NCBI GenBank assembly: GCA_016217925.1
Contig: JACRFK010000003.1
Location: 8,364-72,363 of the forward strand
Source of the DNA: Candidatus Kaiserbacteria bacterium
GTDB lineage: Bacteria; Patescibacteriota; Minisyncoccia; Phycocordibacterales; UBA2100
Length of the DNA: 64,000 nucleotides
Direction of reading: 5' to 3'
Shown piece after piece: positions 4,178 to 53,903 of the stretch; position 1 is the first letter of the stretch; every line of letters starts with the position of its first letter. The translations under genes and the position numbers were made by a program. The notes under the pieces are model-generated. The model saw nothing but the letters and a program-made list of their open reading frames with translations. It did no database searches and was not told the origin of the DNA.

Positions 4178-4180
4178 GGT

Positions 4181-5347: not shown

Positions 5348-5386
5348 CGTTCCAGACTTCTCGTGAATTTGCTATACTCACTTTTA

Positions 5387-6418
5387 ATGAAGCATTCGGC
5401 AATTCTCGGCTTTGGCGTCTATCTGCCCAAGTACCGTATCAGGACCTCCGATATCGCGCGTCACTGGCAGCAGGACGCGGATGCGCTTGTCGCGAGCCTC
5501 GGCGTACATCAAAAATCCGTCGCGGGTCGCGACGAAGACACCTTTACAATGGCGTTCGAGGCGGCCCGCCTCGCGCTCGATATGTCGGGCGTTCCTTCCT
5601 CCCACGTGTCGGCGATCTTCGTCGGATCCGAATCCCATCCGTATGCGGTGAAACCAACGAGCGGCATGTTGGTCGCGGCACTCACACTCGATTCACTCTC
5701 CCATGCCGCTGATCTCGAATTCGCATGCAAGGCGGGTACGGCAGGCCTCCAGATGGTGGACAGTTTCGTGCGGAGCGGCCAGGTCCGTTACGGCCTCGCT
5801 ATCGGGACGGACACCGCGCAGGGCAAACCCGGCGATGCCCTCGAGTACACCGCAGCAGCGGGCGCGGCCGCCTTTGTGGTCGGGCCCGATACACACAAGA
5901 ACGCACTCTGTCGTATCGAAAAGACACTCTCGTTCACTACCGATACACCCGATTTCTGGCGGGCAAAAGGCGAGCAGTATCCGCGGCACGCGGGGCGCTT
6001 CACCGGCGAGCCGGGCTACTTTGAGCACGTTCGCGAGACCATCCGTGCGGCCCAAGATGCGTGGAAGTTGGACCTTGCGGAGATTGGCCACGTCGTATTC
6101 CACATGCCGAATGCAAAGTTCCCCATGCGCATCGCCAAAGAGTTCGGCATTACAAAGGGGCAGATGAGTGCGGGGTTTGTGGTACCCCAGATTGGCAACA
6201 CCTACAGCGCGTGCTCGCTCATCGGGCTTGTCTCCGTGCTCGAAAAAGTCAAAAAAGGGCAACGGATTCTCGTCGTTTCATACGGCTCGGGTTCCGGATG
6301 CGACGCCATCTTGATGACGGCTCAGAAAGACGGGAAGCCCCTTCCTGTCGATGTACGTGAACCTACGTACTTAGATTACAGCCAGTACCTGGAACACACC
6401 GGAGCACTTTCAGTATAA
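5387..6418 (+). CDS. HMG-CoA synthase, archaeal-type (thiolase superfamily)
   Basis: ~343 aa; GFGVYLPKYRI start and thiolase-fold condensing-enzyme blocks; lies between HMGR and the thiolase as in archaeal clusters. Confidence 0.8.
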   Translation: MKHSAILGFGVYLPKYRIRTSDIARHWQQDADALVASLGVHQKSVAGRDEDTFTMAFEAARLALDMSGVPSSHVSAIFVGSESHPYAVKPTSGMLVAALTLDSLSHAADLEFACKAGTAGLQMVDSFVRSGQVRYGLAIGTDTAQGKPGDALEYTAAAGAAAFVVGPDTHKNALCRIEKTLSFTTDTPDFWRAKGEQYPRHAGRFTGEPGYFEHVRETIRAAQDAWKLDLAEIGHVVFHMPNAKFPMRIAKEFGITKGQMSAGFVVPQIGNTYSACSLIGLVSVLEKVKKGQRILVVSYGSGSGCDAILMTAQKDGKPLPVDVREPTYLDYSQYLEHTGALSV

Positions 6419-6570
6419 ATATGCCCCGTAGTGAAATGTGCCTTCGGCTCAAACAACCTATGAAAGCAAACAACAAACGATTCCAAAAGTGCTCCGGTCG
6501 GGAGTGCATGTACCAAGCCGCGGCAGGACGGCATGCCGCCTGCCGCAAAGGCACATTCTACTGACGGGGT

Positions 6571-7695
6571 ATGCAGCAAGACATCTTCTTGGTAGGGTCC
6601 GGGCTCACACGATTTGGCGAATGGTGGGACAAAAGTCTCCGGGACCTCATGCGCGAAGCGATCGAAGCGGCACTCGAGTCGTCGGGACTCCAAGCACAAG
6701 ACGTCGACCTCATCATTGTCGCAAACATGCTTGCCGAGGTTACGAACAACCAGGCTCATATGGCGGCGCTCGCATCGTCGCTCCTTCCGCACCACCCTCC
6801 TGCACTGCGCGTCGAGGCGGCGTGCGGATCGGGCGCGCTTGCGGTCAATACGGCGTGCGCATTTCTCGAGAGCGGAAGGGCAAAAACAGTACTCGTCGTC
6901 GGAGTGGAAAAGATGACCGACGCTTCGGCCGATGCCATTTCGCAGGCACTCATGGGGGCGGCCGACAGCGAGCTCGACGCTCCGTCGGGGCTCACCTTTC
7001 CGGGAATCTTCGGCCTCATTGCGAAAAGGTACATGTACGAATTCGGTCTCACACGCGAGCAACTCAGCATCGTCAGCTCGGTACACCACAAGCACGCGAC
7101 GGAAAACGCTTTTGCGCAGTTCCGCTACGAGCTTTCACCTGAAGCGGTAAGCGCGAGCCCGCTCGTGTCAGACCCGCTGCGTCTCTTTGATTGTTCGCCC
7201 ATCTCCGACGGAGCCGCCGCGTGCGTCCTTTCGACCGTACACAGAAGCGGTATGCGGCTTGCCGCGAGCCAGATTGCGAGCGATACGCTCAGCATCACGC
7301 AGCGCCCGACCATCGTGAGCTTCCCCGCGACGCGCGCGGCGATGGAGCTGGCACTCTGCGAAGCGGACATAACACGAAAGGACATTCACGCCCTCGAAAC
7401 GCACGATTGTTTCTCAATCGCCGCCGTTATCAATATGGAGGACCTCGGGTTTGCGAAGGAAGGCGAGGGGATACGCATCTATGAAGACCTGCACGCGGGG
7501 CACGCGCCGATGTTCGTCAACATGGGCGGAGGTCTGAAGGCGTGCGGCCACCCCGTCGCGGCGACGGGCATCAAGCAGCTGATAGATGTGAGCAAGAGTC
7601 TCACACGCGGCAGGGCGCGGTACGGTCTCGCACACAATTTCGGCGGTGCGGGCGCCACCTGCGGCATTCACGTCCTCGAAAATACACACGTATGA
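6571..7695 (+). CDS. Acetyl-CoA acetyltransferase (thiolase), archaeal-type
   Basis: 374 aa; ...VEAACGSGALAV... and C-terminal ...NFGGAGATCG... thiolase blocks. Confidence 0.85.
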   Translation: MQQDIFLVGSGLTRFGEWWDKSLRDLMREAIEAALESSGLQAQDVDLIIVANMLAEVTNNQAHMAALASSLLPHHPPALRVEAACGSGALAVNTACAFLESGRAKTVLVVGVEKMTDASADAISQALMGAADSELDAPSGLTFPGIFGLIAKRYMYEFGLTREQLSIVSSVHHKHATENAFAQFRYELSPEAVSASPLVSDPLRLFDCSPISDGAAACVLSTVHRSGMRLAASQIASDTLSITQRPTIVSFPATRAAMELALCEADITRKDIHALETHDCFSIAAVINMEDLGFAKEGEGIRIYEDLHAGHAPMFVNMGGGLKACGHPVAATGIKQLIDVSKSLTRGRARYGLAHNFGGAGATCGIHVLENTHV

Positions 7696-7756
7696 ATCCC
7701 GCCCTTTCAGATTCTCCATATTGCAGCATGCTGATTATTAAGATAAAAAGAGCGGG

Positions 7757-8668
7757 ATGAATAACTCCGCTCCCATAGTGCAGCGTGCGCAGAAGCGCGA
7801 ACGGGACAAATTCCTCCCCGGCACGGTCGTTTCGTTCACGACGCTCTCGCATCCACCCGCACGCTTCGGGCCGAGGCCCCGCATGGTCGGCCTCGTCGAG
7901 CTTCAAAACGGGCGGCGCGTGCTCGCGCCGCTTGTCATGGATGCGCCGTACATCGGACAAACGGTACGCCCGCGCATGCGCCTTTCGCACGTGACCCATG
8001 AAGGCCTCCGCGTATACGAAGTCGCGTACGATGAGGCGCCCCAGGTCGCCGTGACGGAGGCGTTTTCCCGCTACCTGCTCGCTTTTACGGGCCCTTCCGG
8101 AGTCGGGAAATCAACGATAACGAAGATGCTCGCGCATGCGTGCTCCGACTACGTCGCGAAAGTACCCATCCTTACCACCCGTGCGCCGAAGCCGGGCGAC
8201 GACGGGGAGTATCTATACACGACTTCTGCTGAATTCGACCGCCTGAAGAAAACGGGGAAAATCGTCGCGATGACGGACATATCGTTTTCGAGCGAAGACT
8301 GGCGGTACGGGTACCGCGCCGCCGACATCGAGGAGATTTGGTCCGCGAGCAAAATACCGGTCGTCGTGACCGAAATGGAATTGCTCCAGGGTCTCGCCCA
8401 TCACTATGGCCGTCGTGCCGTCCTTTCGTTCGGGCTCCTCCCGCCCGGCAAGAGCAAGCGTGCGCGGCTCAGTCAACTGCTCCACCGGCTCCGTTCGCGC
8501 GGGCGTGAATCCGAAGCGCACATCCGCGACCGGCTCAAGAATGCGGAACGTGACCTCGCGTTCTTCGGAGAGCGCAAAGACCTCTTTGACCATATGGTGG
8601 TGAACGAAGACTTGTCTGCCCTTGTCGCCTCATTGAAAGAAAAAGTGCCCGGACTCTCGGGCGCTTGA
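7757..8668 (+). CDS. Fusion protein: N-terminal DUF35-like OB-fold domain (partner of the thiolase/HMGCS complex) plus C-terminal guanylate-kinase-like P-loop kinase domain
   Basis: N-terminal ...GTVVSFTTLSHPP...RMVGLVELQNGRRVLAPLV...GQTVRPRM... resembles DUF35 OB-folds; C-terminal GPSGVGKST Walker A, ...ILTTRAPKPGDDGEYLYTTSAEFDRL... and ...YGY... resemble guanylate kinase. Confidence 0.65.
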   Translation: MNNSAPIVQRAQKRERDKFLPGTVVSFTTLSHPPARFGPRPRMVGLVELQNGRRVLAPLVMDAPYIGQTVRPRMRLSHVTHEGLRVYEVAYDEAPQVAVTEAFSRYLLAFTGPSGVGKSTITKMLAHACSDYVAKVPILTTRAPKPGDDGEYLYTTSAEFDRLKKTGKIVAMTDISFSSEDWRYGYRAADIEEIWSASKIPVVVTEMELLQGLAHHYGRRAVLSFGLLPPGKSKRARLSQLLHRLRSRGRESEAHIRDRLKNAERDLAFFGERKDLFDHMVVNEDLSALVASLKEKVPGLSGA

Positions 8669-8686
8669 GCCTAATCCGGCTTTCCT

Positions 8687-9241
8687 ATGGAACCTCTTTC
8701 CGCGGAAGAAGTAGTAGTGCTCGTGGATGAAGAGAACAATGTGCTCGGCACACAAGATAAATCTGCAGTACACGGCGCGACGACACCGCTGCACCGGGGC
8801 TTTTCACTTTTCCTTTTCGACCGCAGAGGGCATCTCTTGCTCCAGCAGCGCAGCCATGTGAAAAAAACGTGGCCGCTCGTCTGGTCCAATTCGGTGTGCG
8901 GACACCCGACGCTCGGCGAGACCAACGTCGATGCTGCGAAGCGCCGGTTGTCCCATGAGCTCCGCATGAGTGCCACGCTTATCGAGGAGGTCGCACCGTA
9001 TCGCTACTGCTTCACGCGCGATGGCGTGATGGAGAATGAGATATGCCCGATACTGTTGGGTCAAACTCTCGACCAACCAAACCCTAATGGTGAGGAAGTC
9101 GAGGCGACGCGTTGGGTGCCATGGCAGGAATTCCTGCACGAGCTCGACGAGAAGCCGGGATTCTACTCGCCCTGGTGCGAAGAAGAGGCGCGGATACTCG
9201 ACGGATTGCCGCGCTTCCACGAAGTAATCCCCACGAAGTAG
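8687..9241 (+). CDS. idi: Isopentenyl-diphosphate delta-isomerase, type 1 (Nudix)
   Basis: HRGFSLFLFDRRGHLLLQQRS...WPLVWSNSVCGHP...GE... matches IDI-1. Confidence 0.85.
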   Translation: MEPLSAEEVVVLVDEENNVLGTQDKSAVHGATTPLHRGFSLFLFDRRGHLLLQQRSHVKKTWPLVWSNSVCGHPTLGETNVDAAKRRLSHELRMSATLIEEVAPYRYCFTRDGVMENEICPILLGQTLDQPNPNGEEVEATRWVPWQEFLHELDEKPGFYSPWCEEEARILDGLPRFHEVIPTK

Positions 9242-9410
9242 GTCTTTTCCAACATTTTGCCTTGGCCGGCACGTGCTCGTGCCGGCATGACACTCCTCGT
9301 ATCTGCCTTCGGCAGACACTCGGCCCCTCCGGGCGCCTCGCGGCGGTGTCAGGCCCCTCCGGCGCGGCTTATCCACAAGTGGAAGCCGCTCGGGAGGTTA
9401 TACTCACGGG

Positions 9411-11843
9411 GTGAAAAGAGCCCACCGCCAAAAAAAGACGGACGCTCACAAAAAGCTGGTTATTCGAATGGAAGAAGCGGGAATGGACGATATCGCCCTG
9501 GTCGGCGGCAAAAATGCCAGCCTCGGTGAGATGCTCTCCGCGCTCACGAAAAAAGGCATTCGCGTGCCTTCGGGTTTTATCATTACGACCGATGCCTATC
9601 GTGAATTCATCCGCGGGGCGGGACTCGAAGACCTTATCCGCTTCAATCTCGCGCACTTGAAACGGCACGACATTCATGCGCTCGAACATGCAAGTCAGGT
9701 CATCAGGGAAGCAATAGAGGGTGCGCCTCTGCCCAAAGAACTCGAGCATCAGGTCGCCGAGGCGTATGTCTCGATGGAGAAACAGTACGGCAAGCACATC
9801 GACGTCGCCATCCGCTCCTCGGCGACTGCCGAAGATTTGCCGGGCGCATCATTCGCCGGCCAACAAGACACATACCTCGGCGTGCGCGGGCGCGATCATG
9901 TGTTCAAGGCGGTGCGTTCATGTTTCGGGTCGCTCTTTACCGCACGCGCGATTTCATACCGTCACGACAAAGGCTTCGACCACATGGATGTCGCGCTTTC
10001 GGTCGCTATCCAGCGGATGGTCCGTAGCGACTTGGGCGCTTCGGGCGTCGCTTTCACGCTCGACACCGAAACGGGCTTCCGTGACGTCGTCCTCATCACT
10101 GGTACGTGGGGTCTCGGCGAACTCCTCGTGCAGGGACAGGTTGTGCCGGATGAATTTCTCGTCGCAAAGAAAATGCTGGGTCACGCGCCGCTCCCCATCA
10201 TCGGCAAACGCCGCGGCAAAAAAGATATCAAAATGGTATACGCCAAGCGCGGACACGCAGGTCCGCTCCAGGTCGTGAAGAATAAGAAGGAAGACCGGCG
10301 CCGCTTCGTCTTGAACGACAAACAAATTATCGAACTCGCAAAAGCGGCCGTACTCATCGAAAAGCACTACACCAAGATACGCGGCACTCCTTCACCCATG
10401 GACGTGGAGTGGGCGCTCGACGGCCGCACCAATGAGCTCTTCATCCTGCAAGCTCGCCCCGAGACCGTGCAGGTGAGCCGCGACACCGAGAAAATTAAGG
10501 AGTACATCCGCCGCGAAGAGGGCACCCCTATCGTGCGCGGGCTCTCGGTGGGCAACAAGATCGTGACCGGTACGGTGCGCATCATCAACGACGTCCGCGA
10601 CATGCAGGCGCTTTTGCCGGGCGAAGTCTTGGTCACCGAGATGACTGACCCGGACTGGGAACCTATCATGAAAAAAGCCGCCGCCATCGTCACCGAAAAG
10701 GGCGGCCGTACCTCGCACGCCGCGATCGTCTCCCGCGAGCTCGGGCTCACCGCCATCGTGGGGGCCGAAAAAGCGACACAGATACTGCACACCGGTCAGC
10801 TCGTCACGATTGATACGACCTCGTCGGAAGGACTCGTCTTTGACGGCGTCTTGGGTTTCAGCGTGCGCGAGACGGAACTCGGTGCGCTTCCCAAAACCAA
10901 GACCAAGATAGCGATGAACATCGCCACCCCCGACACCGCATTTGAAAAATCATTCTTACCCAACGACGGTGTGGGGCTTGCCCGCGAGGAATTCATTATC
11001 GCCGGCTCGGTGGGCGTGCACCCGCTTGCGCTTATCCACTACGACGAGCTCCCGGAGAATATGCAGCTCCAAGTCCGTAAGAAAACGCGCGGCTGGGACG
11101 ACAGGCTCGAATACTACGTGGACAATCTCGCCTTCGGCATCGCGAAGATCGCGACGGCTTTCTATCCGAAAAAAGTCATCGTCCGCTTTTCCGATTTCAA
11201 GAGCAACGAATACCGCTCGCTCCTGGGCGGTGAGCGCTTTGAGCCGGTCGAAGAAAATCCGATGCTCGGCTGGCGCGGCGCTTCCCGCTACTACGACCCC
11301 AAATTCAAGCAGGCATTTCTCCTCGAGTGCCGCGCGATGCGCAAAGTCCGCGAGACGATGGGGCTGCGCAACGTCATCCCGATGGTGCCTTTCTGCCGCA
11401 CGCTTGAAGAGGGGAGGAATGTGCTCGAAGTGATGGCCGAAGGCGGCCTCAAGCGGGGGAAGAACGGACTCAAGGTCATCGTCATGTGCGAGATTCCCTC
11501 CAACGCGATTTTGGCCGAAGAGTTTCTCAAGATTTTCGACGGCATGTCTATCGGTTCCAACGACCTCACTCAGCTCACGCTCGGCCTCGACCGTGATTCC
11601 GGTATCGTGAATCGTGTAGCCGATGAGAACGACCCGGCGGTGAAAAAGCTCATTGCGGATGTCATCAAAGTCTGTCTGAAGAGTAAAAAGTATGTCGGCA
11701 TTTGCGGCCAGGGTCCGTCCGATCACCCTTCGTTCGCGAAATTCCTCGTGGAGCAGGGGATCGAGAGCATGTCGCTCAATCCGGATTCCATCATCAAAAC
11801 AAAAATAGCCGTCGCCAAGGTGGAGAAGGGGATGAGAAAATGA
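9411..11843 (+). CDS. ppsA: Phosphoenolpyruvate synthase (pyruvate, water dikinase)
   Basis: 810 aa; ...LVGGKNASLGEM... N-terminus, ...GGRTSHAAIVSRELG... phosphohistidine motif and C-terminal PEP-utilising domain. The start is more likely the internal ATG at 9468 (MEEAGMDD...). Confidence 0.9.
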   Translation: MKRAHRQKKTDAHKKLVIRMEEAGMDDIALVGGKNASLGEMLSALTKKGIRVPSGFIITTDAYREFIRGAGLEDLIRFNLAHLKRHDIHALEHASQVIREAIEGAPLPKELEHQVAEAYVSMEKQYGKHIDVAIRSSATAEDLPGASFAGQQDTYLGVRGRDHVFKAVRSCFGSLFTARAISYRHDKGFDHMDVALSVAIQRMVRSDLGASGVAFTLDTETGFRDVVLITGTWGLGELLVQGQVVPDEFLVAKKMLGHAPLPIIGKRRGKKDIKMVYAKRGHAGPLQVVKNKKEDRRRFVLNDKQIIELAKAAVLIEKHYTKIRGTPSPMDVEWALDGRTNELFILQARPETVQVSRDTEKIKEYIRREEGTPIVRGLSVGNKIVTGTVRIINDVRDMQALLPGEVLVTEMTDPDWEPIMKKAAAIVTEKGGRTSHAAIVSRELGLTAIVGAEKATQILHTGQLVTIDTTSSEGLVFDGVLGFSVRETELGALPKTKTKIAMNIATPDTAFEKSFLPNDGVGLAREEFIIAGSVGVHPLALIHYDELPENMQLQVRKKTRGWDDRLEYYVDNLAFGIAKIATAFYPKKVIVRFSDFKSNEYRSLLGGERFEPVEENPMLGWRGASRYYDPKFKQAFLLECRAMRKVRETMGLRNVIPMVPFCRTLEEGRNVLEVMAEGGLKRGKNGLKVIVMCEIPSNAILAEEFLKIFDGMSIGSNDLTQLTLGLDRDSGIVNRVADENDPAVKKLIADVIKVCLKSKKYVGICGQGPSDHPSFAKFLVEQGIESMSLNPDSIIKTKIAVAKVEKGMRK

Positions 11844-11906
11844 GGATAATTCCGACCGTTCAATGAACGCTTCCTCTATATACAGAAGCTTGTGATGCGT
11901 ACTCTG

Positions 11907-11978
11907 CTCCCCGGGTAGGATTCGAACCTACGACCAACTCGTTAACAGCGAGCTGCGCTACCGCTGCGCTACCGGGGA
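11907..11978 (-). tRNA. tRNA-Asn (anticodon GTT)
   Basis: Manual cloverleaf: acceptor TCCCCGG/CCGGGGA, D-arm GCGC-AGCGGTA-GCGC, anticodon loop CTGTTAA, T-arm GTAGG-TTCGAAT-CCTAC, discriminator G. CCA is not encoded. Confidence 0.8.
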
Positions 11979-12199
11979 GCACAATACACATCAAATATCG
12001 CGCTGCTCGTCAGGAGTATATCCGATATTCGGCTCGGATAGAAGAGGCAAACCCAAGGCCAGGCTCGCGCATCATGATGTACAATGAAGCCATGAATAAT
12101 GAAGAAACAGGCGCGGAGGTGAAGGGGACTGAGAGATGCGGACATTGGAATTGTCGGCACCATCGCGGCGGGTCTGTTGTGCATGCGGGAGGAGGCGCC

Positions 12200-12343
12200 A
12201 TGTACGGTCTCGGCCTTATCGGAGCCGCGGTATATTTTATTCAACAAGCGGACACATTCTCCTCAGGAGCGATTGGTCTTCTGAAGGCGCTCGTGTGGCC
12301 CGCATTTTTCGTCTATAAGCTGTTCGGCTTTTTGGGGATGTAA
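12200..12343 (+). CDS. Small hydrophobic peptide (two predicted TM segments), hypothetical
   Basis: ORF 12074-12343; the plausible product starts at the internal Met (MYGLGLIGAAVYFIQQ...FFVYKLFGFLGM). Weak evidence. Confidence 0.3.
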   Translation: MYGLGLIGAAVYFIQQADTFSSGAIGLLKALVWPAFFVYKLFGFLGM

Positions 12344-12751
12344 AAGACGTCATTTTCCCCTGTTGTCACTTAAGCAGAGCGACAAGCTGACCGATTTCTC
12401 GCAGATGTTCCTGGACGGCAGTCTGGTCGCGGAACGTTTTGGAGAAAGTGGCTAATCAGGGGAGAGCCGCGAGTACGGACTCTCTTGTCGGATTGTGAAA
12501 ATCACCCTTCGTTTCTTTGAATGACTGCTCCACAATCTTGGTGCAGTAATCTCTCTCCGCTTGTTCATAGCCGCCGGTCAGGCCCAGGTGGTCCCGGTGA
12601 GCATTGAGGAAGCACTCAATTATGGCGTCGCGCACCATCTGCGGAGTGACTTCCTTGTCCGTATCAACCTCCTACGGACGAGTATCTAAACGCTGGCCGG
12701 GTTATGCAGGGCGCACATTCTCCCCGGCCCGTGGCCTGCTATAATCCACAT

Positions 12752-12928
12752 ATGAAGCACTACATTTGCACAGGCGGGTGCGAAGGTGAGTCGAAGGTGC
12801 CGGGGTCGTGTGAGGCGATCGCGTGCCCGAAGAACGGAAAGCCGCTCTCGGAATGCGACTGTGGTGATGGAAAACACAAGCCGCAGACCAAGACCCCGTT
12901 GAGACCAGAAGAACGCGAGTCGGAGTAG
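12752..12928 (+). CDS. Small cysteine-rich protein (7 Cys; possible metal-binding), hypothetical
   Basis: MKHYICTGGCEGESKVPGSCEAIACPKNGKPLSECDCGDGKH...; strong GC3 codon bias in this frame. TATAAT at 12740-12745 ends only 6 nt before the ATG, suggesting a leaderless transcript. Confidence 0.5.
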   Translation: MKHYICTGGCEGESKVPGSCEAIACPKNGKPLSECDCGDGKHKPQTKTPLRPEERESE

Positions 12929-12966
12929 ACGTCGCTGTTTCAATCCAAAACAGCAGCCAAAGTTGC

Positions 12967-13236
12967 CTACGCCCCGCGGTGGAGCCAATTCCAAAGGTAA
13001 GCGAACGCGTACCCGAATACGCACCCCATGAGGAAGGTCATGATGATTAGGGTAATCGCTGCGGTAACTTCGAACGGCCCGATGATAATGGGGAGATGTA
13101 TCATGTGCGCCCACAGAACGAAGTCATAGAGCGTCTGCGCCCAGCCGCTCAAGACCAATACCGACCAGACAGCATGCAATCCGCCGATAAACAAACCGAC
13201 TGTAAGAGCCGTTCTACTGACGCTAAGTGTGTTCAT
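12967..13236 (-). CDS. Small integral membrane protein (3 TM), hypothetical
   Basis: 89 aa, strongly hydrophobic (...LFIGGLHAVWSVLVLSGW..., ...ITLIIMTFLMGCVFGYAFAY...). Confidence 0.5.
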   Translation of the reverse strand: MNTLSVSRTALTVGLFIGGLHAVWSVLVLSGWAQTLYDFVLWAHMIHLPIIIGPFEVTAAITLIIMTFLMGCVFGYAFAYLWNWLHRGA

Positions 13237-13545
13237 AGTATTTTGATCGTTTAACTCGCACGAGGTTGGATACTATTAATAATCCTTCGCCTTCAGGACT
13301 TTATGATAGGGGGCGTCGACCTACGGCAATTATCTGCCCGAATGCGGTGGCTGACAATGGGCCCATCCCAATGTACTCATCTCATACAGAACCTTGACAA
13401 GGTATTACCCGCATGATAATCTTCCCGTATCAACCAGCGCTGATCCAGAGAAGGGGGATCGACCTACAACTCCAGCTAACTGACATTGATACCAACAGAA
13501 GACACACATCTTTGTCGGTTTATCCATCGAATAATTCTAATTGCT

Positions 13546-13749
13546 ATGCAAACAGGAACTATCGCCCGTCTCACCGATAAGGGTTTCGGGTTTATCTCTC
13601 GCGAGGGTCAGGAAAAGGATCTCTTTTTCCACTCCAACGAGCTCGTCGGGGTTTCCTTCGACGAACTTCGCGAAGGTGACAAGTTGACTTTCGAAGTCGC
13701 TGACAGCCCGAAGGGGCCGAACGCGGTCAAGGTCTCCCGCGTCTCCTAA
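13546..13749 (+). CDS. cspA: Cold-shock protein (CspA family)
   Basis: MQTGTIARLTDKGFGFISREGQEKDLFFHSNEL... (RNP1/RNP2 motifs); preceded by a ~300-nt untranslated leader. Confidence 0.9.
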   Translation: MQTGTIARLTDKGFGFISREGQEKDLFFHSNELVGVSFDELREGDKLTFEVADSPKGPNAVKVSRVS

Positions 13750-29288: not shown

Positions 29289-30344
29289 ATGGATATCGAA
29301 CTCTTGAAGAAGACCGCGAAGCAAATGGTCGCTCCGGGGAAGGGCATCCTTGCTGCCGACGAAAGTTCGGGTACGTGCCAAAAACGGTTTGAATCGGTCG
29401 GTGTGCCCTGCACCGAAGAGAATCGCCGTGCGTACCGCGAAACTCTGCTCACCGCAGACGGGCTTGAACAGTACATAAGCGGCGTCATTCTCTACGATGA
29501 GACCATCAGACAGGAGACCAATGAGGGAGAGGCGTTCGCGGCGGTACTCGAAAAGAAGGGCATCCTTCCGGGCATCAAAGTGGACACCGGGGCAAAAGAA
29601 CTGGCTCTCCATCCTGGAGAAAAGGTGACCGAAGGCCTCGACGGGCTCCGCGAGCGGCTTGCCGAGTACAAAACTTTGGGCGCACGTTTCGCCAAATGGC
29701 GTGCCGTCATCACGATAGGCAAAGATTTGCCATCCCCCGCCTGTATCCATGCAAATGCGCACGCAATGGCCCGCTATGCCGCGCTATGCCAAGAGGCCGG
29801 CATCGTGCCCATGGTGGAACCGGAAATACTCATAGACGGCGACCACAACATCGAGCGCTGCTATGAAATATCGACCGCGACTCTGAAGAAGACGTTTGAA
29901 GAACTCGCCGGGCAGGATGTCGCCGTCGAAGGGGTCATCCTCAAAACGAGCATGGTCATCGCGGGGAAACAAGCGAAGTCCGCCGAAGGCGGATCCTCCT
30001 CCGGAGGACAGTCGGGCATGGAGGAAGTCGCGAAGGAAACAATCCGCGCTTTCAAGGAAACGCTGCCCGCGGGGCTCACTGGCGTCGCGTTCCTTTCGGG
30101 CGGACAGACCGACGAGCAGGCGACGGAACACCTGAATGCGATGAATGCGACCGGCAAGCTTCCGTGGCCGCTCTCGTTCTCGTACGGGCGTGCTCTGCAA
30201 AACCCCGTCCTCAAGATTTGGGCCGAAAGTCCGAATGCGAACATCGCGAAGGCACAGGCGGCGCTACTTTTCCGCTCAAAGATGAATTCGCTCGCGACGC
30301 AAGGCAGATACTCAAGCGAGATGGAAAAAGAGCGACCGTACTGA
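29289..30344 (+). CDS. fba: Fructose-bisphosphate aldolase, class I
   Basis: ...GKGILAADESSGT..., ...LEGVILKTSMV..., ...FLSGGQ... class-I Schiff-base aldolase blocks. Contains the in-frame palindromic mini-element (see repeat feature). Confidence 0.85.
   Translation: MDIELLKKTAKQMVAPGKGILAADESSGTCQKRFESVGVPCTEENRRAYRETLLTADGLEQYISGVILYDETIRQETNEGEAFAAVLEKKGILPGIKVDTGAKELALHPGEKVTEGLDGLRERLAEYKTLGARFAKWRAVITIGKDLPSPACIHANAHAMARYAALCQEAGIVPMVEPEILIDGDHNIERCYEISTATLKKTFEELAGQDVAVEGVILKTSMVIAGKQAKSAEGGSSSGGQSGMEEVAKETIRAFKETLPAGLTGVAFLSGGQTDEQATEHLNAMNATGKLPWPLSFSYGRALQNPVLKIWAESPNANIAKAQAALLFRSKMNSLATQGRYSSEMEKERPY
29978..30008. repeat. Second copy of the 31-bp mini-element, in-frame in fba (30/31 nt identical to the atpA copy)
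   Basis: GTCCGCCGAAGGCGGATCCTCCTCCGGAGGA; encodes SAEGGSSSGGQ. Confidence 0.55.
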
Positions 30345-31024: not shown

Positions 31025-31095
31025 TGGACTTACCGGGAATCGAACCCGGGCCTCGTCAATGCGAATGACGCGTAATACCACTTTACTATAAGCCC
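31025..31095 (-). tRNA. tRNA-Ala (anticodon CGC)
   Basis: Cloverleaf with acceptor GGGCTTA/TAAGTCC including the G3:U70 Ala identity pair, anticodon loop TTCGCAT, T-loop TTCGATT. Confidence 0.75.
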
Positions 31096-31144
31096 GTATA
31101 CAACGGACCCGTGCGGAGAAATATAACAGATACAACGTATTCAC

Positions 31145-31615
31145 TCAATTCAACAGCCAGACGCCCATGGTCAGATATCCGGCAAAAATGATCCAGAGCA
31201 AATATGCCGCCATCAAATATACGGCGCGGCGGTCAATGTCGGCTGCACTTGCAGTGAGCGCGAGAACGATCGCTCCCAGGAACAAGATGTCTACGAAGGC
31301 AATAAAGGGAGAATGGAACCCAAAGAAAAACATCGTGTAACACGTACTGAAAAGTAGCTGTATGAAGAAGAAGCGCACCCATCCGGCAGTGTGGGCTGCG
31401 GGGAATTTTCTCGTCCACACAATGGCGAGTGCTGCGGCCGTCATACCGTAAAGGATCAGCCAGACAATGGTAAATGTAGTGTCTGATGGTGTGAAAGAGG
31501 GCTTATTGAGATTGGCGTACCAACTCGAGTCTCCGACATCTACGAAGAGAAATCCAATAAGGCCTGAGCCGTAAGAGGCGAGGAGGGCGATCAACACCCG
31601 AACGAGTCGGCCCAT
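31145..31615 (-). CDS. tspO: TspO/MBR (tryptophan-rich sensory protein) family
   Basis: 156 aa, 5 TM; ...SWYANLNKPSFTP...WLILYGMTAAALAIVW... Trp-rich pattern. Confidence 0.75.
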   Translation of the reverse strand: MGRLVRVLIALLASYGSGLIGFLFVDVGDSSWYANLNKPSFTPSDTTFTIVWLILYGMTAAALAIVWTRKFPAAHTAGWVRFFFIQLLFSTCYTMFFFGFHSPFIAFVDILFLGAIVLALTASAADIDRRAVYLMAAYLLWIIFAGYLTMGVWLLN

Positions 31616-31684
31616 ACAGCCTCAGCATATGCCCCTCATATTTCTGCGCTATTATGGTTATCCACACCTAAAGAGTGACACTGA

Positions 31685-31755
31685 TCGGGCCGCCGAGAAT
31701 CGAACTCGGGCTACAAGACCCCCAGCCTTGCGTACTGCCACTATACGACGGCCCG
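31685..31755 (-). tRNA. tRNA-Pro (anticodon GGG)
   Basis: Acceptor CGGGCCG/CGGCCCG, anticodon loop CTGGGGG, T-arm CCGAG-TTCGATT-CTCGG. Confidence 0.75.
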
Positions 31756-31774
31756 CGCTCGATAAAGTCTCTTG

Positions 31775-31845
31775 TCGGGCCGCCGGGAATCGAACCCGGT
31801 CTTTACGAACCCGAATCGCACGTACTACCGGTATACTACGGCCCG
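31775..31845 (-). tRNA. tRNA-Pro (anticodon CGG)
   Basis: Same acceptor stem as its neighbour; anticodon loop TTCGGGT; T-arm CCGGG-TTCGATT-CCCGG. Confidence 0.75.
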
Positions 31846-32010
31846 GCAAAAGACTTCATCGATACTCACATGCAAGGTGGTCACAAATATTTCCTCGCCG
31901 TCGCTCGGAAATTTCGCGACCCCGGCTCGCGGTCGCGCGTACTCGCGCGACATCGCTCCGCCCTGCACAGCGCGGGCAAATGTGCCGTAGGGCACATTTT
32001 CCCGTCGCTG

Positions 32011-32084
32011 TGCACCTTTCAGGATTCGAACCTGAGACCTTTCGAATGTGAATCGAACGCTCTAACCAACTGAGCTAAAGGTGC
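32011..32084 (-). tRNA. tRNA-Val (anticodon CAC)
   Basis: GCACCTT acceptor, D-arm GCTC-AGTTGGTTA-GAGC, anticodon loop TTCACAT, T-loop TTCGAAT. Confidence 0.8.
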
Positions 32085-33339: not shown

Positions 33340-33411
33340 GCTCCCATAGTTTAATGGATAGAACGTAAGCTTCCGGAGCTTATGATCGAGGTTCGATTCC
33401 TCGTGGGAGCA
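33340..33411 (+). tRNA. tRNA-Arg (anticodon CCG)
   Basis: Acceptor GCTCCCA/TGGGAGC, anticodon loop TTCCGGA, T-arm CGAGG-TTCGATT-CCTCG. Confidence 0.8.
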
Positions 33412-33461
33412 CAAACGATTGCTCGCGTTGACGTTTTTGTTTTGTTAAGATGCTCCGCGAC

Positions 33462-33534
33462 GGGCCATTAGCTCACTTGGTAGAGCGCTTCCATGGCATG
33501 GAAGAGGTAACCGGTTCGATTCCGGTATGGTCCA
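33462..33534 (+). tRNA. tRNA-Ala (anticodon GGC)
   Basis: Acceptor GGGCCAT/ATGGTCC with G3:U70, D-arm GCTC-ACTTGGTA-GAGC, anticodon loop ATGGCAT. Confidence 0.8.
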
Positions 33535-41454: not shown

Positions 41455-42381
41455 ATGGAGGGTAAACATCGAAGTGTTCTTTTACATGAAGCAATTGAAC
41501 AGTTGGCGATAGAACCAGACGATACGGTACTGGACGCGACACTCGGCGGTGCGGGTCACGCACTCGCGATTGCGCAAAAGCTCGACAAGGGGGGAACCCT
41601 TATCGGGATAGATGCAGATCACGATGCGGTAGTCCGCGCACAAGAAGCGCTCGCAGGTGTTGCGCCGAAAGTGCATCTCGTCGAGGGAAACTTCCGCAAT
41701 CTGAAAGCGGAGCTCGACAAACTCGGCGTCGCGTACATAACGAAAGCCCTCTTCGATTTAGGGTGGAGCTCATTTCAGCTCGACTCCGGAAGAGGATTCT
41801 CGTTGAAAGCAGATGAACCGCTTCTCATGACCTACTCCTCCTCCGAAGGAGGATCGGCCTCCGGCGGAAAGGACCCCGGCGCGCTTACGGCGGCGGCAAT
41901 CGTCAATGAGTGGTCCGAGGAATCGATCGCGGACGTCATCTTTGGGTGGGGCGAAGAGCGGTACTCGCGGCGTATTGCGAAGTGCATCGTGGAAAGACGC
42001 GAAAAGAAACCTTTCACGACCGCACGCGAGCTTGCAGAAGCCATCTACGAGGCGGTGCCTCCGAGATACCGCTTCGGCAAAATCCATCCCGCTACGCGCA
42101 CGTTCCAGGCACTGCGTATCGCGGTCAACGATGAGCTGGGGAGCCTATCGCAGGGACTCGCCGACGGATGGCAAGCGCTGTCGTGCGGCGGACGTATCGC
42201 GGTAATCACGTTCCACTCCATCGAAGACAGGCTCGTCAAACAAACGTTCAAGCAATGGGAGGAGGCGGGGGAGGGCAAACGCGTAACAAAAAAGCCCATC
42301 GTTGCCGGTGAGACAGAAACCTCCTCAAATCCAAGGTCCCGCAGCGCTAAATTGCGCGTCATCCAGAAAGTCCCGACGTAA
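41455..42381 (+). CDS. rsmH: 16S rRNA (cytosine1402-N4)-methyltransferase RsmH
   Basis: ...HRSVLLHEAIEQL...LDATLGGAGHA..., ...GGRIAVITFHSIEDRLVK... Contains an inverted copy of the in-frame mini-element. Confidence 0.85.
   Translation: MEGKHRSVLLHEAIEQLAIEPDDTVLDATLGGAGHALAIAQKLDKGGTLIGIDADHDAVVRAQEALAGVAPKVHLVEGNFRNLKAELDKLGVAYITKALFDLGWSSFQLDSGRGFSLKADEPLLMTYSSSEGGSASGGKDPGALTAAAIVNEWSEESIADVIFGWGEERYSRRIAKCIVERREKKPFTTARELAEAIYEAVPPRYRFGKIHPATRTFQALRIAVNDELGSLSQGLADGWQALSCGGRIAVITFHSIEDRLVKQTFKQWEEAGEGKRVTKKPIVAGETETSSNPRSRSAKLRVIQKVPT
41836..41869. repeat. Third copy of the mini-element, reverse-complement orientation, in-frame in rsmH
   Basis: TCCTCCTCCGAAGGAGGATCGGCCTCCGGCGGA matches the reverse complement of the atpA copy with 2 mismatches in the ~30-nt core; encodes SSSEGGSASGG. 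Confidence 0.5.
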
Positions 42382-45034: not shown

Positions 45035-45106
45035 GGCCCTATCGTCTATCGGTTAGGACACAAGCTTCTCAAGCTTGGAAGCCGGGTTCGATTCCCGGTA
45101 GGGTCA
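45035..45106 (+). tRNA. tRNA-Glu (anticodon CTC)
   Basis: Acceptor GGCCCTA/TAGGGTC, anticodon arm CAAGC-TTCTCAA-GCTTG, T-arm CCGGG-TTCGATT-CCCGG. Confidence 0.75.
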
Positions 45107-50976: not shown

Positions 50977-52575
50977 ATGGATTCAGCAACCGTCGAGAAG
51001 ATAATCAAAGAGATAGGCAACATCGCACCTGCACACGAAGGTGAGCACGTAGGCCGGGTGGTCGCGGTCGGCGACGGCGTTGTCGCCATCGACGGACTTT
51101 CCAAGGCGGTGATGAGCGAAGTGCTCCTCTTCGAAGAGGGCAAAGGCAAGAAGCTGAAGGATACATTGTCCGCCGGAGGCGGATCCTCCTCCGGAGGAGA
51201 AACACAGGGGGAACTCTACGGCCTCATTTTGAACCTCGAAGAAGACGGCGTGCGCGCGACCATTCTTGGCGACACTGCCCGTGTGAGCGAAGGCATGACC
51301 GTCAAATCGACCGGAAGGATCCTCTCGGTGCCGGCAAGCGAAGAGCTGCTCGGCCGGGTAGTGAATGCCCTCGGCGAGCCGATAGACGGTAAAGGACCAT
51401 TCAAGAAAACGAAACTCATGCCGATAGAACGACAAGCGGCGGGTGTTATCGACCGCAAGTCGGTGTCGGTCCCACTTGCGACCGGTACCAAAGCAATTGA
51501 CGCGATGATTCCCATCGGTCGCGGCCAACGCGAGCTCATCATCGGCGACCGCGGCACGGGGAAGACCACTGTCGCCATTGACGCCATCATCAACCAAAAG
51601 TACGAACCGGAAGCGACCCGCCCCATCTGCATCTATGTCGCCATCGGCCAGAAGGAGAGTAAGACCGCACGCATCGCGCAGCAATTGCGCGAACAGGGTG
51701 CGATGGACTACACCATCATCGTCGACGCTCCCGCGTCCGCTCCCGCCGCGCTCCAGTACCTGTCGCCGTTTAGCGGCGTTGCCATCGGTGAATACTTCAT
51801 GGACAAAGGCCGCGACGTCCTCATTGTCTATGATGACCTCTCCAAGCAGGCTACCGCTTACCGTCAGCTCTCGCTCCTTCTGCGCCGTCCGCCGGGTCGC
51901 GAAGCGTATCCGGGCGACGTATTTTACTTACACTCGCGATTACTTGAACGCGCATGCCGCCTGAACGAGGAAAAGGGCGGCGGTTCTATCACAGCGCTCC
52001 CTATCATCGAGACGCAGGAAGGCGACGTCTCCGGATACATCCCGACCAACGTCATCTCCATCACCGACGGCCAGATGTTCCTCGTGGCTGACCTCTTCAA
52101 CAAAGGCATCAAGCCGGCCATCGACGTCGGCATCTCGGTCTCACGCGTCGGTTCCGCCGCGCAGACCAAGGCGATGAAAGGCGTCGCCGGCGGCATCAAG
52201 CTGGAGCTCGCGCAATTCCGCGAGCTTGAAGCATTCATGCAATTCGCTTCAGACCTCGACAAAGCCACTGCCGACCGCATCGAATCGGGCCGCCGCATGG
52301 TGGAGGTCTTGAAACAGAAAAACGGCGCTCCGATACCCCTCGAGCGTCAGGTCGCCGCGTTGTACGCCGCAGGACACGCGTTTTTTCTCGACGTACCGGT
52401 GAATAAAGTTACCGAAGTCGAGCGTCAGCTCATGGAATTTCTCGATGGTCAGTACTCGAAAACTCTTGCAGCTATCAAGAAGACGGGCCAACTTTCCGAG
52501 GACGCGAAGAAAGAGCTGAACAATGCGATGGAGGAGTTCAGGCTTGCGCATCCGGAGTTGTTTGCGACGAAATAA
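50977..52575 (+). CDS. atpA: ATP synthase F1 subunit alpha
   Basis: ...GDRGTGKT... P-loop, ...VYVAIGQK..., ...DDLSKQA... Carries a ~24-aa Gly/Ser-rich insertion in the N-terminal barrel, encoded by the palindromic mini-element. Confidence 0.9.
51168..51198. repeat. 31-bp double-palindrome mini-element (GTCCGCCGGAGGC-GGATCC-TCCTCCGGAGGA) in-frame in atpA
   Basis: Contains the hairpin CCGCC-GGA-GGCGG and the perfect 12-bp palindrome TCCTCCGGAGGA; encodes [11 protein letters not shown]. Confidence 0.55.
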
Positions 52576-53543: not shown

Positions 53544-53903
53544 ATGCTCGAAGCGGGAAAAAAAGAAGGGACGGTCGAGGCACTTATCGGAAGAGCTAAT
53601 CCAAAGGCGTACGTTGCGGACGCAGCTCAGTTGGCAATACGAGAGGTTGGGATGGAGTATAGGTTGGGGAAAAAGAACGAAGACATGGTCATCAATGGCA
53701 TAAAAGAGGCGATGGTTCGTTTTTCTGCCGGGGAAACGCCTCAGACCGTGACTGAATGGAAGAGAATTGCCTTTATAAGCGGCGAAGAGCTCTTGAGGGA
53801 TCTTGCACTACTCGGATTTGATGAGAGCGAAGGAATGATCGGAGCGTATCACGAGGCCGTAGACGCTTACCTTGCGGAGATCTTGAAGGAGAAGCGGGAG
53901 TGA
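53544..53903 (+). CDS. Hypothetical protein inserted between atpG and atpD
   Basis: 119-aa ORF with lower local GC and weaker GC3 bias than neighbouring genes; no recognisable motif. Confidence 0.45.
   Translation: MLEAGKKEGTVEALIGRANPKAYVADAAQLAIREVGMEYRLGKKNEDMVINGIKEAMVRFSAGETPQTVTEWKRIAFISGEELLRDLALLGFDESEGMIGAYHEAVDAYLAEILKEKRE

Follow-up and report, generated by a model that had tools for sequence, protein, structure and literature searches.

Three short strings of 30 nt lie in frame in three unrelated housekeeping genes, atpA, fba and rsmH, within a 64-kb stretch of Candidatus Kaiserbacteria DNA, referred to here as the window. These strings are probably copies of a non-autonomous, ultra-short, palindromic mobile unit, a "double-hairpin element", which is found in unrelated genes and intergenic DNA of many uncultured lineages. 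The features concerned are as follows, with hyphens separating stems from loops and slashes marking the edges of hairpins.

51169..51198: element copy 1, in atpA; TCCGCC-GGA-GGCGGA/TCCTCC-TCC-GGAGGA; predicted peptide S65-A-G-G-G-S-S-S-G-G74
29979..30008: element copy 2, in fba; TCCGCC-GAA-GGCGGA/TCCTCC-TCC-GGAGGA; residues 231-240, SAEGGSSSGG
41839..41868: element copy 3, in rsmH; + strand TCCTCC-GAA-GGAGGA/TCGGCC-TCC-GGCGGA; SSEGGSASGG
50977..52575, + strand: atpA, F1 ATP synthase alpha subunit, 532 aa (Pfam)
29289..30344, + strand: fba, class-I fructose-bisphosphate aldolase, 351 aa (Pfam)
41455..42381, + strand: rsmH (MraW/RsmH), 16S rRNA m4C1402 methyltransferase, 308 aa (Pfam)
51142..51213, + strand: AtpA loop K56-E79 in the N-terminal beta-barrel, a 14-aa loop plus the 10-aa element product

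An earlier note on this DNA had described a 31-nt string, GTCCGCCGGAGGCGGATCCTCCTCCGGAGGA, at 51168-51198, with two further copies. The string and its copies are present, but the repeat unit is 30 nt long and the leading G belongs to the flank. Allowing up to three mismatches, the string recurs at 29978-30008 (one mismatch, + strand), in agreement with the 30/31 identity reported for fba, and at 41839-41869 (three mismatches, - strand). The rsmH copy had been placed at 41836-41869 and called inverted; it occupies 41839-41868, and because the family consensus reads identically on both strands, no copy can be assigned an orientation. One stem mismatch is present in this copy. All three copies are in frame within + strand ORFs, and no others were found in the window with up to seven mismatches, with a generic pattern or as half-elements. 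An Rfam scan of the window returned eight tRNAs and nothing else. The copies are not expected by chance: dinucleotide-preserving shuffles gave 0 matches to the string, and in an alignment of the 150-nt contexts of the three copies, identity is confined to about 30 nt, with sharp boundaries and unrelated flanks. The initial judgment that convergence is implausible is upheld. The RsmH product of the window is identical to P0241 of an NCBI Candidatus Kaiserbacteria MAG, and no protein identical to the AtpA product is on record.

In the repeat unit two hairpins abut, and each has a 3-nt loop on a 6-bp stem. Two adjacent palindromes had been recognized correctly in the atpA copy, but their parse has to be redrawn as TCCGCC-GGA-GGCGGA plus TCCTCC-TCC-GGAGGA. 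With its flanks, the family consensus reads TTT/TCCGCC-NRA-GGCGGA/TCCGCC-TYN-GGCGGA/AAA, and the conserved 14-bp core of this dyad-symmetric consensus is AGGCGGATCCGCCT. A flanking motif, a possibility raised in the earlier note, does exist as a bias: T occupies position -2 in 95 of 119 copies and A position +2 in 94 of 119, so that the 5′ flank is usually T-rich and the 3′ flank A-rich. The stems covary: double changes occupy 46 cells where shuffles give 7.6 (none of the 500 was as high), and 97% of stem cells form pairs. Base pairs within each hairpin are kept better than those over the long palindrome; a model with one long hairpin was rejected for its poorer fit than the two-hairpin model at free stem columns. 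A census found 104 perfect doublets, in which mutually inverted 15-nt hairpins meet at GGA/TCC, and 0 triplets. Singlets are mostly halves of degenerate doublets, and true singlets are almost absent. The GC content of the element is 0.72 against 0.46 in its hosts, the lowest hosts being at 0.32.

A scan of a genome collection, with a search pattern that did not demand stem complementarity, yielded at least 120 loci, and both stems are complementary at 6/6 positions in 100 of the 130 matches listed. Labelled hosts among the loci listed are mostly Patescibacteria (CPR), joined by Omnitrophota, Lentisphaerae, Ignavibacteriota and others (several labels are unreliable), and their GC content ranges from 32 to 70%. 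Also among the loci listed, 73 host ORFs span 142 Pfam families, and 75 of 118 good copies lie in phase inside ORFs of at least 150 aa. Phase 0, which reads S-A-x-G-G-S-A-x-G-G, accounts for 75 of the 85 listed copies within such ORFs (p ~1e-25), and half of the exceptions are at ORF edges. The phase bias suggests that insertions may land in any frame and orientation, and that in genes only those in the phase TCC/GCC/... would survive. Survival would further be confined to surface loops and protein termini. Owing to the dyad symmetry, the surviving phase yields one flexible peptide from either strand.

The placement of the copies within proteins is in keeping with such a filter. The 24-residue AtpA loop K56-E79 described in the earlier note is real, but the element contributes only 10 of its residues (S65-G74), the other 14 being common to all Kaiserbacteria AtpA retrieved. 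The insertion had been said to be missing from known alpha subunits, and by alignment the solved ones indeed have only 1-2 residues here; the PF02874 profile matches the window AtpA only from residue 77. As the AlphaFold model of AtpA is poor (pLDDT 57.5), alignment to solved structures was used for this protein. In the Fba model, residues 230-240 are the only segment with pLDDT below 50, and alignment to 1wg8 and 1m6y leaves the rsmH element peptide in a gap. On these models and alignments, the element peptide is located in disordered or inserted surface loops.

Relatives of the window preserve exact empty sites. For instance, L140 reads ...ATG/GAG... at the atpA site where L139 reads ...ATG[30 nt]GAG..., and L003 shows an exact 30-nt gap relative to the window, L001 and L002, in both cases with no duplication. 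The closest AtpA relative of the window (P0361, 96.3% identity) is empty, and filled P0370 and empty P0371 are 97.6% identical. Of the 120 Fba relatives listed, nearly all lack a copy at the fba site, and none of those closest to the window has one; here too the gap is exactly 30 nt with no target-site duplication. The Fba loop is filled at two different codons, one in P0226 and the other in the window, P0151 and P0225; to judge from the sequences, these copies are independent insertions. The rsmH copy is common to a small clade, is partly deleted in P0244 and is missing from most relatives. Exact empty sites, phase bias, loop placement and a widespread family with sharp boundaries and covarying stems together bear out the proposal of a tiny palindromic, copy-and-paste element tolerated as Gly/Ser codons.

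Filled or remnant AtpA alleles occur at no fewer than 6-8 places on the tree. Copies at the same site, which the earlier note would have read as an ancient feature, are present in more distant Kaiserbacteria, yet they are interspersed with empty, remnant and decayed alleles within a recombining population. Decay runs from one mismatch (L135) through a decayed copy (L136) to remnants (L138 and P0369), and both point mutations and internal deletions contribute to it. Locally, filled haplotypes are about 10-20% different from empty ones, and recombination mosaics are present; the recurrent filling of exactly one atpA bond in several lineages could go back to a single old insertion, with recombination, instead of repeated insertion. 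Co-conversion of the flanks between filled atpA alleles was rejected, there being no local identity peak. In no case did genomes with near-identical surroundings of the site differ in whether a copy was present, and so active transposition is something that we infer and have not observed. A search of metagenomes for same-species polymorphism at the fba site gave no match.

A mechanism can be proposed for the double-hairpin element. An enzyme supplied in trans would recognize the hairpins on single-stranded DNA, as do IS200/IS605 or RAYT-type HUH enzymes or integron-type recombinases. It would cut at the hairpin feet and move the 30-nt unit, which could close into a small dumbbell circle. Such cutting would explain why target duplication is absent, why empty sites are exact and why stems covary while loops drift. 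Filled and empty alleles may also be swapped between related lineages by homologous recombination. A bolder version, which is possible but rather unlikely, holds that the 30-mer is the complete cis part of a minimal transposition system spread across Patescibacteria and other groundwater phyla, and that a widespread trans enzyme moves it as a single-stranded DNA dumbbell. The junction of the dumbbell circle, GGA/TCC, would regenerate the element's own centre, and insertion would occur at T/A-rich sites with no target duplication.

The surroundings of the copies were searched for such an enzyme. No recurrent protein family was found near them; a small GIY-YIG gene near 2 of 120 copies is not significant. 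A tblastn search for HUH/Y1 transposases in about 1.1 Mb, a weak test with YafM and IS200 TnpA queries, recovered only one IS200-type TnpA (L106), whose IS200 end hairpins are unrelated to the element. The same weak test detected no RAYT gene in the ~1.1 Mb. No larger parent element was seen, Kiritimatiellae MAG included.

Another explanation, which appears unlikely, is that a host-useful cis-acting DNA or RNA signal has been spread by selection, its genic copies being merely tolerated. The signal could act in DNA uptake or recombination, as a hairpin in mRNA, or as a target bound by a dimeric protein of the nucleoid or of repair. A dyad-symmetric consensus with a conserved 14-bp core is what would be expected for a dimeric DNA-binding protein, and the near-identity of the consensus across phyla and the compensatory changes that keep the stems can be read in the same way, as can the conservation of 29/30 positions among orthologous atpA copies against ~76% in their flanks. 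However, copies have decayed or been partly deleted in several lineages without replacement, and the host genes are random and unrelated. Stem mismatches read on the sense strand include 3 G.U and 6 A.C, a tiny sample with no G.U excess and no sign of selection at the mRNA level. DNA uptake sequences (DUS/USS) are ~10-12 nt long, occur about once per kb, are lineage-specific and build up by point mutation and drive, whereas the element is 30 nt long, is gained whole as an exact 30-nt block, has a single cross-phylum consensus and reaches a density of just 3 copies over the 64 kb of the window.

It is quite improbable that the copies are footprints, in which two 15-nt terminal hairpins were rejoined after the excision of a larger transposon or of an intron-like or intein-like element. 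The constant occurrence of inverted doublets joined at GGA/TCC, with no triplets and almost no true singlets, would suit this origin, as would the absence of target duplication. However, no hairpin pair separated by cargo was seen in the ~1.1 Mb examined, and copy length is uniform. The two repeats of L010 (Kiritimatiellae MAG) flank ordinary genes, and the double hairpin there is one module of a ~200-nt mosaic intergenic repeat. A parent lying in frame in more than 100 different essential genes would moreover need splicing, and nothing of the kind was seen.

An ordinary Gly/Ser low-complexity linker that arose independently through convergence or slippage, or an old feature passed down vertically, is very improbable and is already contradicted by the results. 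The peptide does resemble a generic flexible Gly/Ser linker, and tandem repeats that fit a loose version of the pattern exist in high-GC genomes and phages (L072, L126, L128-L130). These genuine low-complexity matches can be told apart, since their stems agree at only 4/6 positions and are non-complementary, whereas the fully complementary stems of 100 of the 130 listed matches compare with an estimated expectation of ~1 in 64. The remaining sites are discrete 30-nt units and not diffuse Gly/Ser sequence, an objection that the earlier note had itself raised. In addition, synonymous positions are fixed across phyla (TCC, GCC, GGC, GGA), the GC content of 0.72 is kept in hosts down to 0.32, intergenic copies exist, and the sites of the closest relatives are empty. 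An artefact that came from sequencing, assembly or cloning, for instance from a BamHI-linker-like oligonucleotide, has a negligible chance, and this reading too is already contradicted: the centre is GGATCC and the 12-mer GGCGGATCCGCC occurs in the literature only within (BamHI) cloning primers, but the element is present in assemblies of many independent studies, including contigs of 0.7-1.6 Mb, it lies in frame and in loops, its orthologous copies differ by substitutions and deletions, and most genomes are without it.

Several families of short palindromic repeats invite comparison with the double-hairpin element. RPEs, the Rickettsia palindromic elements, are ~100-150 bp long, form about 10 families confined to Rickettsia and have no known transposase (PMC10969869). 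The likeness to them proposed in the earlier note is sound in that both are palindromic, non-autonomous and inserted in frame in unrelated housekeeping genes, where they are translated (here by prediction) and tolerated; it does not extend to an RPE-like restricted distribution. The element has 30 bp and encodes 10 aa, against ~100-150 bp with a conserved peptide module of at least 30 aa, and it follows one consensus over several phyla with a featureless decapeptide, whereas RPEs stay within Rickettsia. Nothing in the sequences suggests homology between the two.

REPs are another example, and they carry a conserved GTAG or CGTC 5′ tetranucleotide (PMC3733652). Neither tetranucleotide is present in the element logo, which reads TTT/TCCGCC.... 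REPs and REPINs share with the element short GC-rich hairpins, an inverted doublet as replicative unit, singlets as decaying remnants and stems whose structure is conserved above their sequence, and either could plausibly depend on a single-copy enzyme acting in trans. Element copies in PVC-type genomes are also mosaic with other hairpin modules, as in BIMEs. However, REPs are extragenic and species-specific, with a spacer between two REPs and a cognate RAYT (Y1 HUH) gene in the same genome that is typically flanked by REPs, whereas the element has neither tetranucleotide nor spacer, is mostly intragenic and has a consensus common to several phyla. REP/RAYT-like systems diverge from one species to the next and do not usually keep such near-identity across phyla, which counts against a system of that type.

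Comparable units are also found in organelles. Sponge RHEs are hairpins of 15 and 18 nt, often arranged as tandem double hairpins, and genes for rRNA and proteins are among the places where they lie (PMC2800124). Yeast GC42 has constrained stems and variable loops and spreads via homologous recombination, its mechanism being unresolved (PMC4478555). Like the element, mitochondrial GC clusters, RHEs and Allomyces DHEs are very short, palindromic and GC-rich, have stems under constraint and loops that vary, and sit in AT-richer genomes. They differ in being organellar, and GC42 has a target duplication of AG (or TAG for yeast clusters), whereas the element is bacterial and chromosomal, lacks duplication, passes a strict reading-phase filter and crosses phyla.

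Minimal elements of the IS200/IS605 group (PATEs) are similar in that two hairpins are the sole cis requirements, target duplication is absent and empty sites are precise. IS608 moves by a single-strand "peel-and-paste" mechanism in which only the 5′ flank is constrained. Elements of this group have subterminal hairpins and insert 3′ of a specific tetra- or pentanucleotide, with a cognate TnpA. The known ends of this group are longer and have guide sequences outside the hairpins with a constraint on the 5′ flank only, whereas the element's hairpins abut, leave no room for a guide and have bias in both flanks. This two-sided bias counts against a simple IS608-type mechanism. Classical MITEs have terminal inverted repeats and a target-site duplication; the element differs, as it is entirely inverted repeat and, by comparison of filled and empty sites, has no such duplication.

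A literature search by core sequence, half-site, peptide signature and concept found no prior description of the natural element. If the element is confirmed, its 30 bp would make it the shortest mobile repeat known from bacteria, and Rickettsia RPEs would be the only earlier clear case in bacteria of selfish palindromic DNA inside essential protein-coding genes. Two traits are unusual: a nearly invariant consensus in very distant, mostly uncultured lineages, and a symmetric design that gives the same harmless Gly/Ser decapeptide in either insertion direction. The element would explain many small lineage-specific loop insertions in CPR proteins, which bear on alignments, phylogenomic markers and structure prediction. 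Its copies would also show, as a natural map, where insertions are tolerated in core enzymes such as F1 alpha, aldolase, DnaG, Pol I, Pol III alpha, aminoacyl-tRNA synthetases and RNR. Should the minimal-system reading be true, no smaller transposable unit would be known, and the element would continuously supply loop insertions to the essential proteins of reduced genomes.

Other candidate explanations and reservoirs were considered and rejected. A translational bypass element ("byp") does not fit: such elements are untranslated, have matching take-off and landing codons, and often contain stops or have a length that 3 does not divide. Here the length is a multiple of 3 and the phase in use has no stop; the preceding codon (e.g. 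TTG, AAG, TCC) also matches neither the last codon of the element nor the one that follows. A bulge-helix-bulge intron was rejected on anatomy. Phages are not a reservoir, with only 3 genuine copies in 2.9 million viral contigs. Within the family, there are sub-families common to several loci and genomes. One example is TCG(G/A)CC-CAA-GGCCGA/TCCGCC-TCG-GGCGGA; L002 and L135 carry it in atpA, L110 in a different gene.

Three copies of a 30-nt palindromic repeat, probably mobile, are present in the window, which belongs to a Candidatus Kaiserbacteria (Patescibacteria) genome; each copy lies in-frame within a plus-strand ORF. Pfam assigns the host genes to the F1 ATP synthase alpha subunit, class-I aldolase and MraW/RsmH (the window RsmH matches NCBI protein MBI5457176.1 at 100% identity). 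Matches to a 31-mer, the element plus one leading flank base, are as follows:

51168-51198, atpA, reference string for the repeat search
29978-30008, fba, 1 mismatch
41839-41869, rsmH, reverse complement, 3 mismatches

The near-identical string that the earlier note claimed for these genes thus recurs, and dinucleotide-preserving shuffles give 0 matches to the 31-mer. Alignment of the 150-nt contexts of the three copies shows similarity only over ~30 nt, with unrelated flanks. No fourth copy turned up in the 64-kb window when up to 7 mismatches were allowed, or when a generic pattern or half-elements were searched for, and an Rfam scan of the window gave no match at the three positions.

The two-palindrome structure originally described holds, while the length does not: the repeated unit is 30 nt, not 31 bp. 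It is built of two hairpins that abut, both with 6-bp stems and 3-nt loops; in atpA they read TCCGCC-GGA-GGCGGA and TCCTCC-TCC-GGAGGA. One representative genome per species was scanned with the loose pattern TCSNCCNNNGGNSGATCSNCCNNNGGNSGA, which imposed no complementarity at its N and S positions, yielding at least 120 loci. Both stems are perfectly complementary in 100 of the 130 matches listed, against our own chance estimate of ~1 in 64. The family logo is TCCGCC-NRA-GGCGGA followed by TCCGCC-TYN-GGCGGA, with TTT before and AAA after; A at position 9 and T at 22 occur in 112/119 copies, leaving only 7-8 and 23-24 free. As this consensus reads identically on both strands, the element has no orientation and the rsmH copy, formerly taken as inverted, is just another member.

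The structure is conserved as hairpins. Cells at the four pattern-free stem columns are paired in 97% of cases and hold 46 compensatory double changes, compared with 7.6 ± 2.6 in shuffles (0/500 reached 46). Stem variants include TCCTCC/GGAGGA, TCCACC/GGTGGA, TCCCCC/GGGGGA, TCGGCC/GGCCGA and TCGTCC/GGACGA. Pairing within each hairpin is kept better than pairing across the long palindrome (10-15 versus 26-27 unpaired cells). The unit is essentially always a doublet, with 104 perfect doublets and 0 triplets, 'singlets' being mostly halves of degenerate doublets. The fold of the 36-mer consensus is strong, with -15.7 kcal/mol for DNA (z = -5.9) and -24.4 kcal/mol for RNA (z = -5.5). At L001:12210-12224 (L handles denote loci from other genomes or metagenomes), in a genome that also has a full atpA copy, a lone 15-nt hairpin, TCGGCC-CAA-GGCCGA, is found in-frame close to the atpG start. 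Ordinary Gly/Ser low complexity is a very unlikely source. Only 3 copies among 2.9 million viral contigs are genuine, and the remaining viral matches, plain G/S tandem repeats with 4/6 'stems', show how such sequence looks under the scan pattern, whereas family copies are mostly fully complementary.

Among copies in ORFs of at least 150 aa, 75/85 use the single phase TCC GCC ... (binomial p ~1e-25), which encodes [F/L/I/V/M]-S-A-x-G-G-S-A-x-G-G-[K/E/N/D/Q]; owing to the dyad symmetry, either strand gives the same peptide class. Half of the off-phase exceptions (5/10) lie at ORF edges, just upstream of a probable start or at the very end, and some copies supply the stop codon of the host ORF. 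Copies outside such ORFs sit in short ORFs and are probably intergenic. Genic in-phase copies make up 43/60 in Patescibacteria (CPR) versus 16/33 in other phyla, where the intergenic type is commoner. The 73 host ORFs hit 142 Pfam families, including DnaG, Pol I, Pol III alpha, ribonucleotide reductase, several aminoacyl-tRNA synthetases, DEAD helicases, PGK, PurA, ALAD and a hydrogenase. Terminal enrichment is modest, with 34/75 copies within the terminal 15% at either protein end (p = 0.004).

By record label, hosts among the matches listed are mostly Patescibacteria of many classes (Kaiser-, Saccharibacteria, Doudna-, Lipton-, Magasanik-, Falkow-, Roizman-, Davies-, Moran-, Uhr- and others), joined by Omnitrophota, Lentisphaerae, Kiritimatiellae, Ignavibacteriota (1.6-Mb contigs), Elusimicrobia, Melainabacteria, KSB1 and others. 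Labels of the form 'TPA_asm: uncultured X' are unreliable. For instance, contig CAYGKV010000001.1 (L110 and L003) is labelled 'uncultured Candidatus Saccharibacteria' yet encodes a Kaiserbacteria-type AtpA 90% identical to that of the window, which casts doubt on the many low-GC contigs that bear the element under a 'TPA_asm: uncultured Gammaproteobacteria' label. Mean GC is 0.72 for the element versus 0.46 for host loci, with hosts down to 0.32.

Each window copy is a loop insertion, supported for AtpA and RsmH by alignment to solved structures and for Fba by a structure model. Every Kaiserbacteria AtpA retrieved has a 14-aa loop, KGKKLxxxMExQGE, between two N-terminal beta-barrel strands, where solved alpha subunits have just 1-2 residues; these were aligned for the loop, the AtpA AlphaFold model being unusable (pLDDT 57.5). 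In the window this lineage-specific 'crown' domain loop falls at 51142-51213 (AtpA K56-E79) and splits the PF02874 match. The extra 10 aa derived from the element occur only in a scattered subset of these sequences. In DNA alignments the empty site lacks precisely 30 nt (L003 ...CTC GAA... versus window ...TTG[30]GAA...; L140 ...ATG GAG... versus L139 ...ATG[30]GAG...). The insert boundaries are not shiftable, so the ortholog comparison at atpA yields precise empty sites and no target duplication. The Fba site is empty in nearly all of the 120 relatives listed, including all the closest among them, and independent copies occupy another codon of the same loop (relative P0226 AGK[[10 protein letters not shown]]KAAK versus window AGKQAK[SAEGGSSSGG]QSG). 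In the Fba AlphaFold model, a confident one (pLDDT 90.5), residues 230-240, the decapeptide, form the sole stretch that scores below 50; it is predicted to lie between strand 217-220 and helix 244-258. The RsmH copy is found in a small clade, most relatives lacking it; aligned with 1wg8 and 1m6y, it coincides with a gap that follows the PLDMR motif. P0244 carries a partly deleted copy, SS----SGG.

Alleles at atpA range from intact to eroded. Intact variants have differing but internally complementary stems (L001 TCCGCC/TCCGCC; L002 TCGGCC..GGCCGA/TCCGCC), L135 and L139 have one stem mismatch, L136 is decayed, and 12-nt remnants persist in L138 (STGG) and P0369 (SAGG). A 16-nt solo palindrome with the same stem and a 4-nt loop, read in another phase as 'PPAGG', occupies the atpA site in L137 and L141 and recurs in RsmH loops of other lineages; in L141 it stands in place of 7 nt of the empty site, for a net 12 nt gained.

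L141:695-710, L149:1747-1762 and L137:1195-1210, 16-nt palindrome TCCGCC-RGCT-GGCGGA
RsmH P0245, P0272 and P0290; AtpA P0018, P0043 and P0373, 'PPAGG' at the protein level

Filled and remnant alleles are scattered over at least 6-8 positions of an AtpA tree, in between empty ones. Filled P0370 and empty P0371, from one 90%-identity cluster, are 97.6% identical outside the loop, and the nearest relative of the window AtpA (P0361, 96.3%) is empty. Filled, empty and PPAGG alleles are found together in the same metagenomes. Co-occurring Kaiserbacteria show sharp mosaic borders, with 100% identity for 0.7-5.4 kb and then 10-20% divergence across the ATP synthase operon: L140 and L141 have 0 differences over nt 752-1490 and ~10% divergence upstream (nt 35-752), and L142 (filled; 2227-13673) matches L143 (empty) at 100% over 5.4 kb, then at 76-92%. 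Such borders suggest that lineages often exchange DNA by homologous recombination, although strain-chimeric assembly could give the same picture. Homologous allele exchange explains much of the patchy distribution, and finding one bond occupied in several lineages does not require that the element inserted there more than once. Copy-and-paste to new sites is indicated by the two Fba-loop positions, over 100 host genes that are unrelated to one another, sub-families specific to a genome (in the window, every copy combines a TCCTCC hairpin with either a TCCGCC or a TCGGCC one) and a sub-family shared between atpA of L002 and L135 and a different gene of L110.

The ATP synthase operon also appears to hold a variable cassette:

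window 53544-53903, 119-aa ORF without Pfam match, between atpG and atpD
L003:12560-12916, PF05635 (23S rRNA intervening-sequence protein) gene, between atpG and atpD
L001:12986-13357, unannotated 123-aa ORF, between atpG and atpD
L135:2606-2956, unannotated 116-aa ORF, between atpA and atpG

Insertion of the element adds a 30-nt block without duplication, into a context that is T-rich on the 5' side and A-rich on the 3' side (T at -2 in 95/119 copies, A at +2 in 94/119); the two-hairpin structure is conserved and the loops vary. A trans-supplied enzyme may act on folded single strands, as in IS200/IS605, RAYT or integron attC systems, which share hairpin recognition, no target duplication, precise empty sites and active doublets. 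The two-flank bias and near-invariant cross-phylum consensus do not fit a simple IS608-type model. No cognate enzyme was found in ~1.1 Mb of locus DNA by tblastn with YafM and IS200 TnpA queries, no protein family recurs among neighbour genes of 120 copies, and no cargo-bearing parent element was seen among retrieved loci. An IS200-type Y1 TnpA (L106:3485-3904, Falkowbacteria contig) lies ~700 nt from a copy; its end hairpins (3373-3391, 3926-3944) bear no relation to those of the element. The L106 copy itself lies in CysRS, just before the KMSKS-like loop. Small GIY-YIG genes near 2/120 copies, in two unrelated MAGs, are not significant (L006:4732-5127, ~250 nt away; L043:3418-3678, ~1 kb away, with other hairpin-like repeats ahead of it).

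Among bacterial elements, the one nearest in lifestyle is the Rickettsia palindromic element (~150 bp, about half of copies in-frame in ORFs, genus-restricted; PMC10969869), and the RPE-like reading stands for an in-frame palindromic repeat in unrelated genes, though a much shorter and cross-phylum one. REPINs, inverted REP doublets, are alike in architecture; the element lacks their extragenic habit and the GTAG/CGTC tag described in PMC3733652. Most alike in size and form are mitochondrial hairpin elements, such as sponge RHE (15- and 18-nt units, often double hairpins, also inside genes; PMC2800124) and yeast GC42, with stem constraint, recombination-mediated spread, an AG duplication and an unresolved movement mechanism (PMC4478555). 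What sets the element apart is its minimal size, cross-phylum consensus and frame-symmetric 'harmless peptide' design; no published description was found in the literature searched by sequence, peptide and concept. A Kiritimatiellae MAG carries the element as a module of a ~200-nt mosaic intergenic repeat, alongside a terminator-like hairpin and a GTCATCC...GGAATGAC inverted repeat (spurious peptide ...ERSEE...RYARNDN), an arrangement that resembles BIME-type mosaics:

L010:~4400-4640 and ~6220-6460, ~200-nt mosaic repeat
L081:~7150-7380, ~200-nt mosaic repeat
L006:~4380-4530, mosaic repeat

Rfam also places eight tRNA genes in the window, six within ~2.5 kb just downstream of fba:

31025-32084 and 33340-33534, tRNA genes of the fba-side cluster
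11907-11978, tRNA gene
45035-45106, tRNA gene
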